A stretch of 64,000 nt of DNA from Octopus sinensis (lineage: Eukaryota): positions 77,624,001-77,688,000 of the forward strand of contig NC_043004.1 of assembly GCF_006345805.1 (NCBI RefSeq). The letters are read 5' to 3'. Below the pieces are notes generated by a model, which was not told the DNA's origin, made no database searches, and saw nothing but the letters and a program-made list of their open reading frames with translations. Shown here one piece after another: positions 6,402 to 59,069 of this stretch. The translations under genes and the position numbers were made by a program. Each line of letters begins with the position of its first letter. Position 1 is the stretch's first letter.

Positions 6402-6435
<34 letters not shown>

Positions 6436-6441
<6 letters not shown>

Positions 6442-6872
6442 TAACAAAGATGTACAGGTGTCCGTTCATTACGGCCATTTCAAGTGGATCCATTTAATTG
6501 ATTAATGAGAACATTACATCAATTTGAAAGAAACTGCTCTCTTCAGATGACTGCATAGGCATCAAACATAAAGGATAAACCATTTTTTAAATACAAATTT
6601 ACATCAATAATGGAAACCAAAATATTTACATTGTCTCCTCTTGTTATCATTTGCCAAAAATATAACAAAAGGAAACAATGTAAATATTTTGGTTTCCATT
6701 ATTGATGTAAATTTGTATTTAAAAAATGGTTTATCCTTTATGTTTGATGCCTATGCAGTCATCTGAAGAGAGCAGTTTCTTTCAAATTGATGTAATGTTC
6801 TCATTAATCAATTAAATGGAGCCACTTGAAATGGCCATAATGAACGGACACCTGTACATCTTTGTTACTTAT
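6436..6872. repeat. Near-perfect palindrome with ~210-bp arms
   Basis: ataagtaacaaagatgtacagg... is mirrored by ...cctgtacatctttgttacttat, with a short loop near 6648-6662. Confidence 0.95.
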
Positions 6873-6928
6873 TTATATTCTGTTCACCTAACTTGGGATC
6901 TGCACTTTAGAAATACTATGGAAAGTAT

Positions 6929-21197: not shown

Positions 21198-22167
21198 GTA
21201 AGAGAGAGACTTGTTCTTCGGCCTTAAACGCTTTAAAAATCTGGATAAGTTCAACATCATGAACTTGTAGGCTCGAGATATTTTATTTTCAATTATTTCC
21301 TTCGTTTATCAGACTAAAATTTGATCCTGGTAAATCTTACTCCAAATTTAGATTCAGATGAATATGGTCCTTAAGTTAAAGGCACCAGAATTTGGTATAG
21401 TATTATCCATATAAATTAAATGGGGTGATTATAATCAAAATAAGCAACAAGGATATCCAAGCTAGTGTAGTACAATCGTTTCATGCTACTTCATTTTATT
21501 AAACACTGTATTACATCAGTTTTAAAATGTCGAGCAATCTTCAGCCACATATAGAATTTTTTAATTAAATGGACAATGTACATTTTTATACTTATTTCAT
21601 TTCCCAACATTACAAAGAGGGTAGATATATAGACAGAGAGGTTAATTCCATCATTAAGAACATGGTAGTAGTATGTCCTTCTCCATCTGTAGATTTATTA
21701 TCACTCCATATATATATACTACATATGTGGGAAATTCTGTCTGTGGGTGTTTGAAGAAATTGATCCCAGGACTTATTCTTTGTGAGCCTAATACTTATCA
21801 TCTTGTTTGTTGTTATCAACAAACAAAATGAGGACAAATATTCGTCAAATGTAAATAATGTTATTTCTTAGTAGTTGAACTGTTAGAGTTATTTTCGCAA
21901 TTTATCCAGTACAACCCTTAAACAAGTAAAAAGTATTTTCCTAAACAATAGATCCACTTATTTCAGTTAGTGACTTTCTCACGAATACACCAACACTAGC
22001 GCTCCTGAGGGTAATATTCTCTGGGAACGCACAAAAGCCCTTTTCAGAGTTATTTACTTTGAATTGTTATTATCTCATATCTGATTAGCCTGTTATTACG
22101 TAACACACTTCACGATTTTAGTATACATACCTTATTAGTATTTCCTCCTATGTTCTATATACTCTGG

Positions 22168-22499: not shown

Positions 22500-23560
22500 A
22501 AAAAAATTGCGCCGTGTCTTGTTAGAAGCTTCCTTTTCTCCAGCGCCTTCAGTTGGTCTCGCTGGAGATATGGCACTTGTTTCTTCATCTCTATTTCTAC
22601 ACTCATAACCGGTCCCAAAGTGCAATTCCAAGTCACCGAACATTTTGACTACCGGGATCACTCTTCTTAAATAGTACCCGAATTCTTTAGAGATTTCAAA
22701 TCCATCTGTTACCATCTTGGGCTCTTCATTCATTTTCTTCATTGCGCTTCTGTATTCACGAATGAGTCCATTGCCTTCATAAGTAGATGGGACAACAGTA
22801 ACATTTGTTTTTAGGTTCCCTCCTATTTCATTTTCTTTGTATAATTCTGTTGTGTTCTCAGCGTAATGTTCAGGAAATAATCTCCTATATGTTTGGTCAG
22901 CATACTTCCTTAAATGTTGTTTCGTTAAAAAATAGAAAAAGTCCAGAAATTGACTCACCTTTAAATTTCCTTGGGTTATGTAAATACCTCAAGAGAGTCG
23001 GGGTTTCGACATTTCTTCTCTTATTATATCTATGCATAAGTCTTTCACGAAGATTTAGAGCCAAAGGGTTGCCGACGATATTAAGTTTATTCAATAAAAA
23101 TTCTGTAGAATATTCCGCTTTCAGTAAACCCGTATCATCAGCGCAAATAGCCTTCAAAATAATTTCTACTGAATGCAGAATTTCATATAGTAAATTGAGA
23201 GATTTCCATTCTTCCTCATCGACGGTATCTGTAGAAAGTTCTGCTCGTAGAGCATTTGGAATGCAGCTTTTCAATTTCAGAAATCTCTCAATCATATGGA
23301 ATGTGCTATTCCACCGTGTTCTGCAATCCAGTATAAGTTTATATTCTCTGTTACCAAAGTTCGCTCGTACAAAACCTTGCAAAATTTCATTTTTTGTAGG
23401 AGATTTACGGAAAAGTTTTGAAATTTTTCTTACCTTATTTAAAACTTTGTTAAATTCAGGATTTAGCTGGGGAAAACAAGCATTTTCGTGAGCCAAATCT
23501 GTTTGACAAAGTATGTCTTGTTGGCTTATGTTAGCTTCATCATCACTATCGTCTGTTAGA
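22500..23560 (-). pseudogene. Degraded hAT transposase, C-terminal half
   Basis: LNKVRKISKLFRKSPTKNEILQ...LILDCRTRWNSTFHMIERFL (hAT TRWNS motif), continuing by frameshift to a PVMSVEIE-like dimerisation region. Confidence 0.9.
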
Positions 23561-23942
23561 GCGATCTCTTCACTTTTTTAATCAAAAAATTTAGTGTTAC
23601 TTCCTTGAAATGAATCTGGAACTGGTTATTACATATGCTCAACGGGAAAGATCACCCGACTGAAGACTAACAACATCCCCATGACTTGCTATGAATAAAC
23701 TCAGTTACCTGCAAATTCAAAGAGTCAGCCAGGGGTTAGCGAAGGAGATGACAAGGTGCTGATCTAAGGTTCAAGGGGAAAGAAGGTGAGAATTGATATG
23801 TAGCGATATGTTTCAGTGAAACAGACAGCACTCAACTAAAGGCGACCGACAACAGTTCAGTTAGTCCAGTTTCAATGATATTTCTTGAAAAGAAAAAATG
23901 GAGAAATGTTTTGCGAAAAAAAAAAAAAAGAAAAGAAACAGT

Positions 23943-38035: not shown

Positions 38036-38492
38036 ACAGAGTACCATATGTATGTGTGTTTGAGTGAGTTCCTTTTTTTCCCCTTGTTTTCACATATAAA
38101 CAAAAGCCTTACCATTCATACAGATGTTGGCATTTGCTTGCTGTACAATATGAAAGCATATCCACACTTCTTGCTACATTTTGACATGTTGCACACAAAT
38201 ACACAAAACCTTCACTGTTCTTACAAATGGTGTTGTTTGTTTGCAGTCCTCCACAAAAATATGTCTAAGCTGTTCATTTTTCAACAGACTGGGTACCTTA
38301 CTTAGGAACATGCAATTTAGTTTTCATACCATACTTCTAGCATATTGTTTAGCATATAACAGCTTTAAAAAAATCATTATGTGTCTTTACACAATTATTG
38401 AAAGAAATAATATTATTATAGGATGAAATATGTATTAGAATTGTAAAACTAACTTCTCATGTTATGATGCTTCATATTTTCATATTTTTCAG

Positions 38493-38903
38493 AGCGAGAC
38501 CTCAATTAAAACAATGCATGCATGTCTGGATATCCAGCTGATTATTGAATCTTGCCAGAGAGCTCTAGTTAGTATTCATAAGTCATTGCTAAGTGGCAAC
38601 AGAGAGGATATGCTGCAGAATAATTCCCAGGCGTTTTCTGTAGCCTTAAAATCTAAACCTCAAGTATTCCAACATGATGATGGATTTGTACAGTTCTGGG
38701 ATAAGTTAAATGAGCTTACCCCTGATTATTTAAGAACTTTATCATTAAATAATCAATCGTTGATGCCAACAGCAGATGGAAAACGGCGGAAAATGAGTTC
38801 CTCCCGAAGAGTGAATGCTAGAGAATATATTGGCAGTTTGTTTATTTCATGTTTGCGCAGAAGGCCAAGGATGGAATCCCGTAAAGACGTGAAATCTTTT
38901 TAA
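38493..38903 (+). CDS. Terminal exon 5 (SETSIKTMHACLDIQ...RRRPRMESRKDVKSF*)
   Basis: tttttcag| acceptor in phase 0, matching exon 4; 136 open codons then TAA. The summed CDS is 813 nt (270 aa plus stop). Confidence 0.85.
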   Translation, partial: SETSIKTMHACLDIQLIIESCQRALVSIHKSLLSGNREDMLQNNSQAFSVALKSKPQVFQHDDGFVQFWDKLNELTPDYLRTLSLNNQSLMPTADGKRRKMSSSRRVNAREYIGSLFISCLRRRPRMESRKDVKSF

Positions 38904-40075: not shown

Positions 40076-40420
40076 TTAAAGTTGTAATTAATTTCTGCCA
40101 ACTTACATTGAAAGTAATTAATTAAAATACAATATTTCATTTAATTTATTCATTTTACAAAGAACTAATCAATCATACACTGTAACTAATACATTACGTA
40201 TGTGACACTGTACTATGTTACACTCTACTAAGACAGATATGTTACACACTATAGAATTTACAATAGAATCTGCCTACTATTGCAATCAGATAACCATTAT
40301 ACAATTAAATGTTTTTAAAACGTGCTTTAGACATTTTGAAATCCCCAACAAAATAATGAACTTATTAAACATACTTTACTTAATACAGTTCTATATTTAA
40401 GAGATGAGGAATTATGTACA

Positions 40421-40575
40421 TTATTTACGTTATTTACAATTGAAGGATATTTGTCCTCATCTTGTTTGTTGTTAACAACGTTTTGGCTGATATACTCTCC
40501 AGCCTTCATCAGGTGTCTTGGGGAAATTTCAAACCTGGGTTCTCATTTCTAAGGTATTTTTCGATGTTGTTATTA

Positions 40576-40617
<42 letters not shown>

Positions 40618-40786
40618 TTACTGCCTGAAATTGAACTTGGAATCTTGGGGTTAGTAGCCCGTGCTCTTAACCACTACACCATATGCTCGTGGGCCCATGG
40701 ACATATGGCATAGCGGTTAAGAGCGTGGGCTACTAACCCCAAGATTCCGAGTGTGATTCCAGACAGTGACCTGAATAATAATGATG

Positions 40787-40829
<43 letters not shown>

Positions 40830-40983
40830 TAACAACATTGAAAAATGCCTTAGGAATGAGAACCCAGGTTCGAAATTTCCCCAAGACACCTGAAGAAGGC
40901 TGGAGGATATATCAGCTGAAATGTTGTGTTAACAACAAACAAGACGAGGACAAATATCTGTCAAATGTAAATAACGTAAATAA
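40421..40983. mobile_element. Head-to-head palindrome of a tRNA-headed element with (AAT)n tract and minimal hammerhead
   Basis: Centre gggccc at 40691-40696. Each ~280-bp arm has Pol III A/B boxes, (aat)n and gacac-CTGA(T/A)GA-aggctg...cagc(c/t)-(G/A)AAA-(c/t)gtt. Confidence 0.9.
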
Positions 40984-41973
40984 CACTTTACTTACTTGCA
41001 CACATGTGCAAGTATGTCTGTATATAAGAGCAACACAATTTGTCAGCATATCTGCAATGACTACAGAAACCTTTATGATTTACTAAAGAAAACTACAAAA
41101 AACAATTAGAATCCTAAATAAGGCAACTAGCAGAAGATATTTCCAGAATATGGGTCTCAAGTACTTGAAAAGTTAGTGGCAAAAACTAAAGCAGGATCAC
41201 ATGGAGTAGAAATTATAACTGAAAATAGCTAAAAGATTTAGAAATTAGAAATAAACGACCAAACAATACAGTGTATGGTGTTTGACTTGGGAATTCAATA
41301 TCCATGTCTCATTGCTATGTTTTATCACACTTTTTGCACTTACTTCAAAGAGTCTACTTTTTATAAAGAAAACGAAATCCTTTTTACCAGAAGAGTTAAC
41401 AGTTCCCTTTCTTCCACCTCTTTATATTTTTACTTCAACTAAACCAAATGATAAGCACTGCAAATCAAAGGGAGATGAATGTATGAATGAAATGACCAGA
41501 CTAACGAAACAAAACATTTTGTAATGTTATTATTCTTGAAATAGGAGTGATAGTTATTTATTTTACAAAAAGGACAGATGAAATTAACTCCTGAAATTCA
41601 AGTTATCTAAAGATGTAAATAACATTCCAAAGTTTACAGCAGAAGAAACTCTGCATTATATTACTGTTTTTATAATGAGTTATAATAGAAATATACTTAC
41701 TCTCTACAAATGATGTCTTCAGGGATAAAAACTGGAGATTATGATGAATGAAACAGCAATCTTTAAAAAATATCTAATGTTTTCAAACTGAATTATTATT
41801 GTTATTTTGTTACAAAAAGCTTTATGAAACTATTGTTTTTCATTGTTTGCATTCTGTAATTTTCTTCGAATAAAATTTTGTGAGATGTTTGTTAAATATA
41901 AAAAGAAACAATAAAAGTAAGCAAGCATAGTTTGCCTCACTGGAAGTCTCAAGTATTATTATATCATTAGTCT

Positions 41974-45479: not shown

Positions 45480-46301
45480 GATATACTACTAGCCATAGAT
45501 GAGGTGGACACAAATTGAACTGGTGGTCCTGATGGTTTCCCAGCAATCCTCCTCAAATTGTGTAAGTGTGCCCTAGCGAAACCACTACAGATTCTCTTCT
45601 AGAGCTTCCTTGCAAATGGTAGACTGCCAAGCAAACTGAAGGAGAGAATAATATACCCAATCCATAAAGGGGGAAGCAGAGCAGGTGCCACAAACTTTAG
45701 GCCTATCTCTCTTATTTCACACATCAGCAAAGTCATGGAACGGATAGTCAGAGGGAAACTAATCGCATTCCTTGAAGAAAACAACTTGCTGATTGATACC
45801 CAGCATGGCTTTTGACCGGGTAGGAGCTGCCTGACCCAGCTCTTACAGCACTATGACTGGGTGTTGAGGCAATTACTCAACAACTCAAATGTGGACGTAG
45901 TATACCTTGACTTTGCAAAAGCTTTTGACAAGGTGGATCATGGTATGATATGCCACAAACTGCATGATTTTAGCATAGCTGGAAAACTTGGAGAGTGGTC
46001 AAATGATTTCCTGAAAGATAAGAGTCAGGCAGTAGTGATCAATAGAGTCACCTCAAAGAAAACACAAATATTGAGCGGTGTTCCACTGGGCACTGTCTTG
46101 GAACCACTGCTTTTCATAGTGGCCCTCTCAGATATGCTCTCAGCTGTCTGGATAGCCATTTTTCCTAGCTATGCAGAAAATATGAAAGTCTCGCAGAAAA
46201 TACAGAACCCTAGTGATGTTGCACACCTGCTGCAGGAGTTGAACTCAATTTACAGATGGGCCGAGGACAATAATATGCAGTTTAATGCTGAAAAATTCTA
46301 A
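45480..46301 (+). mobile_element. CR1/L2-group LINE reverse transcriptase fragment
   Basis: GPDGFPAILLK, PIHKGG, NFRPISLISHISKVMERIV, QHGF, VVYLDFAKAFDKVDH, SGVPLGTVLEPLLF, YAEN (decayed YADD), WAEDNNMQFNAEK. Confidence 0.93.
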
Positions 46302-47845
46302 GTTCTCTTGTCATTGCCTCTGTGTGTCCCAACGTTCGAAGGTCATGCTTCACCACCTCATCCCATGTCTTCCTGGGTATCTGTCTTCCATGGGTTCCTT
46401 CCACTGTTAGAGAGTGACACTTCTTCACTCAGCTCTCCTCATCCATAAGCATCCCTGTACAGGGCTTGTACAGCTCTTACCAACCACTCATCTATTCCCA
46501 GTTTCTGCATTGACCACCAGATAAGGGATCGAGGGACTCTGTCAAAGGCTTTCCCCAAGTCAACAAAAGCCAAGTACAGAGGTTTAACTTTGGCTAGATA
46601 TTTCTCCTGCAGGTGCCTCACCAGAAACATAGCATCAGTGGTGCTTCTGCTTGGAACAAAACCAAACTGTATCTCATACGGATACATTTCTCTCCTATGA
46701 CATCACACACTGTCTTGCAATTTGAAATACTTCAGTTCTTTGGTCTTCATGTTGCTGAACATTGCCAAACTTCTTTCCTGCTCTCCCTTGGCTACATACA
46801 CCTGTCTCTTAGCTTCCCTGTTGGCCATCTCATACATTCTCCTGCTATCCCCACTCTTCCAGGCATTTCAAGCCTGTTTCTTTGCTCTAATGGCCCTGTC
46901 TACAGTATTGTTCCACCACCATGTTACACTAGGTCTGGAAAGGACTTTGCACCAGCCACAGATTTGGTTTGTGGAACTCAGCAAGCTATTTTACAGGAAT
47001 TCCCAGCTGCCTTCTATGTCACAGGACTGTAGTTCCTCCTCCCTATCATCAAATTTCTTGGTAAGGATATTCCTAAATCTCTGACCATGTGAAGGATTCT
47101 TTAGCTTCCAAATCCTTCTTTTCCAGATTGGTCTGCTTTTTGGCATCCTTCTGGCCTTGAGTCTAAAGTCACTAATAACTAGTCTATGCTGGTGGGTACT
47201 TTCTTTACTAGGGAGGGTCTTTGTGTTTAAGAGCAACTATGCATGCCACTGTCTGGTGAGAATGAAATCGATCTGGCTAGCAGAGTCACCTGATTGATAG
47301 GTTATCAGGTGGCTAGCTGGCTCCCTGAAGTTGGTGTTGCAGATCAATAGGTTATTTATATCACAGAACTTCAGGAGCCTAGTTCCTTCTTCATTTCATG
47401 TACATGGACCTCATGTACATCATGGAAGATACCAGGTTACTGTCCAACACACCCATTAAAATCTCCAGCCACAAAGATGAAATCATTATCATTGTCACTC
47501 GTCTTTGAGGTAGCCTGCAGAAGAATATCATAAAAGCGATCCTTCTGTTCATTTGGTAGGCCTGCTTGTGAGGCATAGGCAGAGATAATTGTAGCTATAC
47601 AAGTCTGCAAGACTAGCCTGAGTTTAAGTACTCTATTGCACACTCTCACTACCTCTATGACCTTATCCACCCATTTCTCTGCAAGAAGTATGCCCACACC
47701 CCCTATTGCATCACTATTACCTTCACAGAAGTGTTTATACCTATGTGCTTTGCCTGTGAGGACTCTGGCTGAAGTTCCTCTCCACCTTACCTCTTGTATG
47801 CAACATACATCAACATGTCTCCGTTGAAGCATCTCTACAATCAGC
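46302..47845 (-). mobile_element. Internally deleted RTE LINE (APE endonuclease, RT start, C-terminus)
   Basis: VDVCCIQEVRW, GVGIL, IISAYA, VAGDFNG, QIDFIL, QHRLVISD, QFGFVPSRSTTDAMFLVRHLQEKY...FVDLGKAFDRVPR, then PRKTWDEVVKHDL. Confidence 0.93.
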
Positions 47846-47989
47846 CTGTGGGAATGAAGTTGTTGAGGCATAACTGCTGCCTTGAATCGATGTCTTGTCA
47901 TCATTCTCAGTTGAATGAGAAGATGCAATGGTAACGGCGTTTCTTTTTTGTCAGTTTAAGTGATTCTTATTTGTGGGTATGGCAGTCGT

Positions 47990-58890: not shown

Positions 58891-59069
58891 GCTCCAAGCA
58901 AAACACTAAGGAAGCTGACTTTTTTTTTAATATAAAACATATATTTGTATACTTGTACATACATACATACATACATATATATATATATATATGTATGTAT
59001 GTACAAGTATACAAACATATGTTTATATTAAAAAAAAAAAGTCAGCTTCCTTAGAGTTTTGCTTGGAGC
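58891..59069. repeat. Spacerless palindrome centred on (TA)n
   Basis: gctccaagcaaaacactaaggaagctgac... mirrored by ...gtcagcttccttagagttttgcttggagc. Confidence 0.92.

Follow-up and report, generated by a model that had tools for sequence, protein, structure and literature searches.

A palindromic insertion with two tRNA-like heads

The window analysed here, a stretch of 64,000 nucleotides from the Octopus sinensis genome (contig NC_043004.1), holds two inverted arms, 40694-40983 on the forward strand and 40693-40421 on the reverse strand, that meet at gggccc. The arms are identical at 254 of 319 alignment columns (83% by blastn), bearing out the head-to-head palindrome of the original prediction, and each runs in the same order from a tRNA-like head through an (AAT)n tract and about 50 nt of further sequence to a hammerhead ribozyme and an AC-rich end. 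The A box, the (AAT)n tracts and the hammerhead all lie where they had been placed. The predicted extent, 40421-40983, took in both arms, but the left arm is about 37 bp longer, so that the full insertion occupies 40383-40984, with 10-bp target-site duplications outside it. The sequence of this duplication occurs three times in the window against 0.34 expected. Because it flanks the whole unit, we read the palindrome as a single insertion event; two insertions meeting head-to-head by chance are ruled out by the same duplication.

Both boxes and both ribozymes at 40383-40984 are decayed. The lesions predicted for the ribozymes, G12>A on the left and C15.2>T on the right, are present, but there are more: a 2-nt deletion in the 3' strand of stem I on the left, C11.1>T on the right, and damage to the B box of both arms (Table 1). 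The junction corresponds, in the element, to a G six bases above the tRNA-like 5' end. We regard it as almost certain that the insertion is a palindrome of the pseudo-LTRs (pLTRs) of a Penelope-like element (PLE).

Table 1. Features of the insertion, in window coordinates.
Feature	Position	Strand	Basis
Target-site duplication, left copy, 10 bp	40373..40382	+	Duplication search and sequence
PLE tail extension, about 34-37 bp, left arm only	40383..40419	-	Sequence, end mapping
Left pLTR body; from ATG 40546-40544 on, start of the PLE ORF	40420..40567	-	Comparison with ORF-bearing copies
Left minimal hammerhead, decayed by G12>A and by the loss of 2 nt from the 3' strand of stem I	40474..40517	-	Arm alignment
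Left arm (AAT)n tract	40570..40613	-	
Left tRNA-like head; A box at 40681-40671; B box, without its last C, at about 40636-40628	40614..40694	-	
gggccc junction	40691..40696	.	Arms stop at identical element position, central GC common to both
Right tRNA-like head; A box at 40706-40716; B box with two substitutions at 40751-40759	40693..40773	+	
Right arm (AAT)n tract	40774..40832	+	
Right pLTR body; ATG 40856-40858 opens the PLE ORF frame; stops at the upstream one of two family 3' ends	40835..40984	+	
Right minimal hammerhead with C11.1>T and C15.2>T; cleavage predicted between 40925 and 40926	40885..40930	+	
Target-site duplication, right copy, 10 bp	40985..40994	+	

Elsewhere in the window, at 21798-21861, lies a 51-bp piece of this PLE tail whose 5' end carries a short inversion. 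At 6431-6878 there is a MITE-like, 448-bp near-perfect palindrome (96%) that adjoins a (TA)n tract and whose ends match locus L041; two further palindromes, at 833-1097 and 58891-59069, are centred on (TA)n or (TACA)n tracts. LINE remnants with RVT_1 and Exo_endo_phos matches occupy 45816-46301 (+) and 47437-47955 (-). A 226-codon frame at 22897-23577 (-), without a Pfam match, contains a motif suggestive of a hAT transposase remnant. A 154-codon open frame at 38439-38903 (+), 1.5 kb from the PLE and likewise without a Pfam match, is possibly a host exon.

The arm is the terminal repeat of an autonomous element

The palindrome arm is the pLTR of an autonomous Penelope/Poseidon-type element with an ORF of about 835 codons that encodes a reverse transcriptase (RT) and a GIY-YIG endonuclease. 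The proposed link to Penelope holds, and the unit is the terminal repeat of a coding PLE. Among 30 loci found by the stretch at the ORF end, 28 carry the head directly behind the ORF stop; at L025, for example, the coding frame stops about 25 nt above the head, and at L125 the frame opens within the tail. The unit runs head, (AAT)n, ATG, hammerhead, tail, rest of the ORF, stop, about 25 nt, and head again. Full-length copies at L129/L190 open with an inverted truncated copy, which is followed by head, AAT, tail, ORF, head and tail; in L129 the 5' pLTR begins at the head. Partial-tandem pLTRs with an inverted 5'-truncated copy are found at L129/L190 and at L117/L210. The column majority of 48 pieces keeps a single frame open for 839 codons, the first Met being the fifth codon. 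The hammerhead is situated within the first ORF codons, about 30 nt downstream of the ATG.

The full-length copy L190 carries an insertion of about 230 bp from another repeat in its 3' head, immediately beyond the B box (L190:2844-3078). We also observed a TATA-like hexamer that overlaps the ORF stop, about 25-30 nt above the 5' edge of the head (25-nt spacer, e.g. L025:1350-1390), and a two-codon upstream frame with which the head opens.

The protein assignment draws on several sources. An RVT_1 match in L042 has an E-value of 2e-5, below the curated cut-off, and the PLE protein is 68% identical to protein P0001, which has RVT_1 above the cut-off; identities to the proteins P0001-P0004 span 60-68%; the L297 protein has no match to Pfam or PDB sequences. 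For the C-terminus, the nearest named clusters in an Atlas feature search are GIY-YIG at 0.96, with the family in 20-28% of members, while Pfam scans of the endonuclease region gave no match. A CxxC linker between the RT and endonuclease domains, the mark of Neptune, is absent from L297 and present in L310 and L314, which fall on separate branches. The protein tree holds no named Poseidon reference, so the clade name rests on architecture.

Inverted arms, a one-sided 34-bp tail and a minimal hammerhead are known PLE traits; the passages of PMC8557442 on PLE anatomy include the inverted truncated copy and a one-sided tail of 30-40 bp. The same genome also contains younger PLE families at L310-L328 (e.g. 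L310:2324-4756, L312, L314), with frames of 700-900 codons and near-identical tandem and inverted copies. A candidate for the hammerhead pattern lies beside only one of them (L325).

A high-copy family with a minimal hammerhead

The arm is a high-copy repeat in its own 2.7-Gb genome, where a first look gave 3,213 candidates. The intact hammerhead core with stem II has 4,008 exact genome matches and the reversed-pattern control has none, so the hammerhead pattern is not due to chance. Two head motifs have 2,760 and 5,275 matches, and we estimate, roughly and allowing for divergence, 19,000 head copies genome-wide. A looser hammerhead pattern gave 4,948 matches, and the 100 matches listed all read as copies of this family. 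Long copies differ from the column majority by 5.4% on average (64 pieces), a sample biased toward young copies because the pieces are best-scoring hits.

The head-to-head form is real, but it is a habit of the family and not a special arrangement of this locus: an inverted arm is present at 21 of 29 other loci, for 23 of 43 hammerhead-anchored arms and at 40 of 68 head-anchored loci. The tail extension is likewise one-sided, occurring in one arm only in 9 of 11 palindromes, in neither in 2 and in both in 0. Copies have two alternative 3' ends, one about 125-135 nt and the other about 160 nt into the ORF; the pile at 160 nt coincides with the end of the query, but flank divergence and loose read ends occur at the same point. 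Tandem pLTR arrays are seen at L081:1200-1534 and L096, which would put two hammerheads on the same strand at a distance of about 150-200 nt, as a dimer requires.

The majority letters of head-anchored arms retain an intact CUGANGA/GAAA core, with stems I and II of 5 bp and 5-6 bp, an additional base after position 9 and a palindromic, loopless stem III, in agreement with the minimal type I hammerhead originally described. Stems I and II appear in the predicted fold of intact copies, and 91% of stem I cells are paired. The distant PLE L271 has a hammerhead of like layout with different stems. The assignment is based on motifs and on the published description of minimal hammerheads; Rfam returned no hammerhead match at the locus or in near-intact copies. 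Stem covariation, to which the original prediction had looked, amounts to 0 compensatory pairs; the 26 distinct rows compared all come from a single young family under neutral decay, and stem II was fixed by the search pattern.

The suggestion that the element is processed by its ribozyme did not find support, because copies extend about 45-80 nt beyond the cleavage site, as expected if reverse transcription starts internally. The two ribozymes of the locus lie on opposite strands and both are lesioned, and a working cis-dimer is therefore unlikely here. Passages of PMC11167929 describe in vitro insertion of an Anolis PLE without a need for hammerhead cleavage.

Solo pLTRs are not a separate SINE lineage

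Solo units outnumber ORF-linked ones by about 4 to 1, and a solo pLTR holds both the putative promoter and the RT start sites, so short transcripts from it could be copied in trans. Both points would suit the view taken in the original prediction, in which a separate non-autonomous SINE, transcribed by Pol III and processed by its ribozyme, borrows the enzymes of Penelope. Against that view, the identical sequence is the terminal repeat of a coding element, copies end well beyond the cleavage site, and solo copies have no alleles of their own: not one column separates 106 solo arms from 61 ORF-linked arms by majority letter. Both sets contain the two subfamilies in similar ratios (32:22 among ORF-linked and 66:36 among solo arms, p 0.50). 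Three tail columns do differ in frequency (p < 0.02) with the majority letter unchanged, probably because part of the solo sample was picked for an intact ribozyme. A tRNA-derived SINE with a lineage of its own would share only its 3' tail with the PLE; here the head itself stands in the coding element at 28 of 30 loci and no majority difference is diagnostic. As far as sequence comparison goes, a separate SINE lineage appears largely refuted, and we give it little credence, although short transcripts of solo pLTRs may still serve as templates.

The head has a sharp 5' edge at the distance of a Pol III start

The unusual part of this PLE is the head with A and B boxes at the start of its pLTR. 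The boxes stand at tRNA spacing, and the head scores 35-56 against 14 genomic tRNAs, compared with 19 +/- 6 for shuffled sequences. The best scores, 56 with Arg-TCT and 55 with Ala-TGC among these 14 tRNAs, assign no single isotype. The tRNA-like character that had been proposed thus rests on motifs and on this alignment; ARAGORN and Rfam made no tRNA call on the head, either at the locus or in near-intact copies, and two near-intact heads show no cloverleaf fold. The head is not a working tRNA. Nine distant PLE loci came from metagenomes and none from viral or prokaryotic collections; the A/B-box pattern is found in none of the six of these loci that were scanned.

Copies of the family begin abruptly. 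In 57 of 68 head-intact loci the sequence extends no more than 10 nt above the first tRNA-like base (in 56 if a copy with a deletion is taken to continue upward). The set includes at least three non-independent pairs, and the reference used carries two private changes close to the edge. Some 80% of head-bearing copies end within 10 nt of the head, about 13 nt above the A box. Genome-wide, a 19-mer of the head is matched 5,275 times, but one situated about 50 nt upstream 1,031 times. This edge is also where the two arms of the palindrome and the L129 5' pLTR end. Transcription by Pol III typically starts 10-20 nt above the A box; the edge fits this distance and may mark a Pol III start.

Two other origins of the edge were considered. 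The head might be a processing signal, the edge being set where RNase P or a comparable nuclease cleaves a longer transcript made by Pol II. The edge does lie near the tRNA-like 5' end, and many copies stop right there, but many others, those of the window included, retain 4-6 bases above the tRNA-like first base, and near-intact heads show no cloverleaf fold (two heads) and draw no call from ARAGORN or Rfam; we hold this to be the least probable of the readings.

The second is an ordinary PLE that captured the head of a tRNA-derived SINE as a passenger and is transcribed by Pol II, from an internal TATA-less promoter or by read-through, the edge then reflecting RT arrest and fold-back at a GC hairpin. 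The 5' edge does coincide with a 5-bp GC hairpin that has a 2-nt loop and forms the centre of many palindromes; moreover, passages of PMC2377424 place an internal LINE-like promoter at this position in Penelope of Drosophila virilis. Such a stem and loop would probably be a weak block to RT, however, and 28 of the 68 head-intact loci have no inverted sequence upstream (e.g. L143, L145, L148) yet start at the same few bases. The Pol III spacing of the edge from the A box also speaks against a passenger.

The majority coding strand has no T4 run

The sense strand of the column majority contains no run of four or more T in 2,542 columns, alongside 29 runs of four or more A. Resampling of third bases predicts 4.5 such T runs (P 0.007), synonymous permutation 3.0 (P 0.026) and dinucleotide shuffling 2.3 (P 0.069). 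All seven control PLE ORFs, by contrast, have 2-16 T runs, at or above expectation (P 0.47-0.99, third-base null); these are single copies set against a column majority, six from other, younger families of the same genome and one metagenomic, and they are mostly richer in Phe, among them the two that could be placed on the tree, which are Neptune-type. The sister proteins of the family have the same low Phe content. In 68 kb of natural copies there are 25 T4 runs, which are private, any site being shared by at most two rows. Runs of five or more A are also depleted (8 against 17 expected, P 0.001), as they are in one of the seven controls. The T4 test was one of several things looked at.

These results bear on the passenger reading in both directions. 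The absence of T4 reaches only P 0.007-0.07 and long A runs are scarce too, which would sit well with a passenger head, but the controls show no T4 deficit. RNA-seq of a relative (about 6% of each of three raw runs from one study, and one contig set) has equal strands; 70-75% of reads continue into unlike sequence, depth drops in parallel with copy number toward the 5' ORF, and a transcript start at the head appears in none of the three runs. The reads resemble read-through, as a passenger head would have it. Their pattern is that of read-through from old copies, and they carry no weight either way on Pol III or on editing. On balance, we consider a passenger head the less likely reading.

A Pol III promoter may drive a coding element

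We therefore favor, at a probability of roughly 55%, the reading that a Pol III promoter starts the RNA of this element and may drive its whole coding transcript. The Pol III transcription foreseen in the original prediction is thus probably right, though for an autonomous element and not for a non-autonomous one. Its first part, a Pol III start at the head, we find slightly easier to accept than the reading as a whole, given the boxes and the edge; that the entire coding RNA is made by Pol III we put at somewhat under an even chance. The complete scenario, to be taken as tentative, is an autonomous coding PLE under Pol III, in which a tRNA-type promoter was acquired in the pLTR, TTTT was purged from a coding strand of 2.5 kb, the uncapped RNA is translated behind an (AAU/AAC)n leader, and SINE-like solo pLTRs arise as a by-product because PLE reverse transcription starts internally.

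Under this scenario, Pol III would start about 13 nt above the A box and, unhindered by any TTTT, read through the 2.5-kb unit into flanking DNA. By analogy with Anolis, the RT/GIY-YIG protein would nick AT-rich DNA and begin reverse transcription inside the RNA at the tail sites, so that neither a defined 3' end nor poly(A) would be needed. A start at the 3' pLTR would yield ORF-bearing truncated copies, and a start at the 5' pLTR, or on the transcript of a solo pLTR, a copy of about 300 nt up to the RNA 5' end, which would account for the abundance of solo pLTRs that end sharply on the 5' side. A palindrome would then arise if the copy folded back or was re-primed at this edge, and the hammerhead could be a passenger or a regulator, acting as a dimer or with protein. 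The weak link of the Pol III reading is the translation of uncapped RNA, which it leaves unexplained; the (AAU/AAC)n leader is reminiscent of the leaders of plant viruses that are translated cap-independently.

For autonomous retrotransposons, Pol I read-through is the other accepted route besides Pol II. Passages of PMC10886601 take autonomous retrotransposons to use Pol II and only non-coding parasites to use Pol III, and describe Pol III-driven elements as length-limited. If our reading is true, a coding element under a tRNA promoter would break this split, and would offer both a natural case of translation from a Pol III RNA and one path by which an autonomous element can turn into a SINE. 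Whether or not Pol III is involved, the sharpness of the 5' edge provides a genomic read-out of the PLE transcript end in the roughly 19,000 head copies. Where host transcripts include them, the family's 300-600-bp palindromes could also supply much double-stranded RNA.

Comparison with known systems

The PLE, its hammerhead and the inversion are already known. OR1 and OR2, attributed to Ohshima and Okada in 1994, are reportedly cited as CORE SINEs, and a third family could be this PLE head. The PLE family itself is probably present in automated repeat libraries, from which the promoter reading may be absent. We found no description of a tRNA-headed or Pol III-headed PLE in the literature searched, including the pertinent passages of PMC13282606, PMC8967140, PMC4758252, PMC4824008, PMC6765202, PMC10886601 and PMC8557442; a term search of the PMC8557442 supplement gave only Naiad and Hydra for the octopus rows among the matches listed, and 0 for tRNA.

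The closest counterpart is Poseidon_Ac of Anolis carolinensis, in the Penelope/Poseidon clade. As described in passages of PMC11167929, it likewise has a single ORF for RT with a C-terminal GIY-YIG, a pLTR that runs into the ORF start with the hammerhead over the first codons, AT-rich targets, and two 3' ends 30-40 nt apart, the tail spanning two internal RT start sites. Those passages describe no tRNA-type head, whereas the octopus pLTR opens with A and B boxes on a unit without TTTT. Penelope of D. virilis also has its start site and promoter in the pLTR, an inverted 5'-truncated copy and a one-sided tail of 30-40 bp, but its promoter is given in passages of PMC2377424 and PMC8557442 as TATA-less, internal and LINE-like, with an intron, in place of the A/B-box head seen here.

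With the minimal hammerheads of metazoan PLEs, as covered in parts of PMC4209133, the putative octopus ribozyme shares the extra base between 9 and 10.1, the G10.1-C11.1 pair, the loopless palindromic 15.2-16.2 and the short helix I. Those ribozymes are mostly single or on opposite strands 100-700 bp apart, as here, and nothing essential differs. The SINE-like Sm-alpha repeats of Schistosoma likewise have a Pol III-type promoter adjoining a hammerhead, but according to passages of PMC6765202 they are non-coding, tandem and released by cleavage of a canonical ribozyme, whereas the octopus unit is the end repeat of a coding element with ends off the cut site. Finally, the TRIMp3 elements Cassandra, Helenus and Ajax carry a Pol III promoter derived from a small RNA within the terminal repeat, tRNA-like in Helenus; as set out in passages of PMC10886601, these are short non-autonomous LTR elements whose autonomous partners are argued to need Pol II, whereas the octopus repeat belongs to the autonomous PLE itself.
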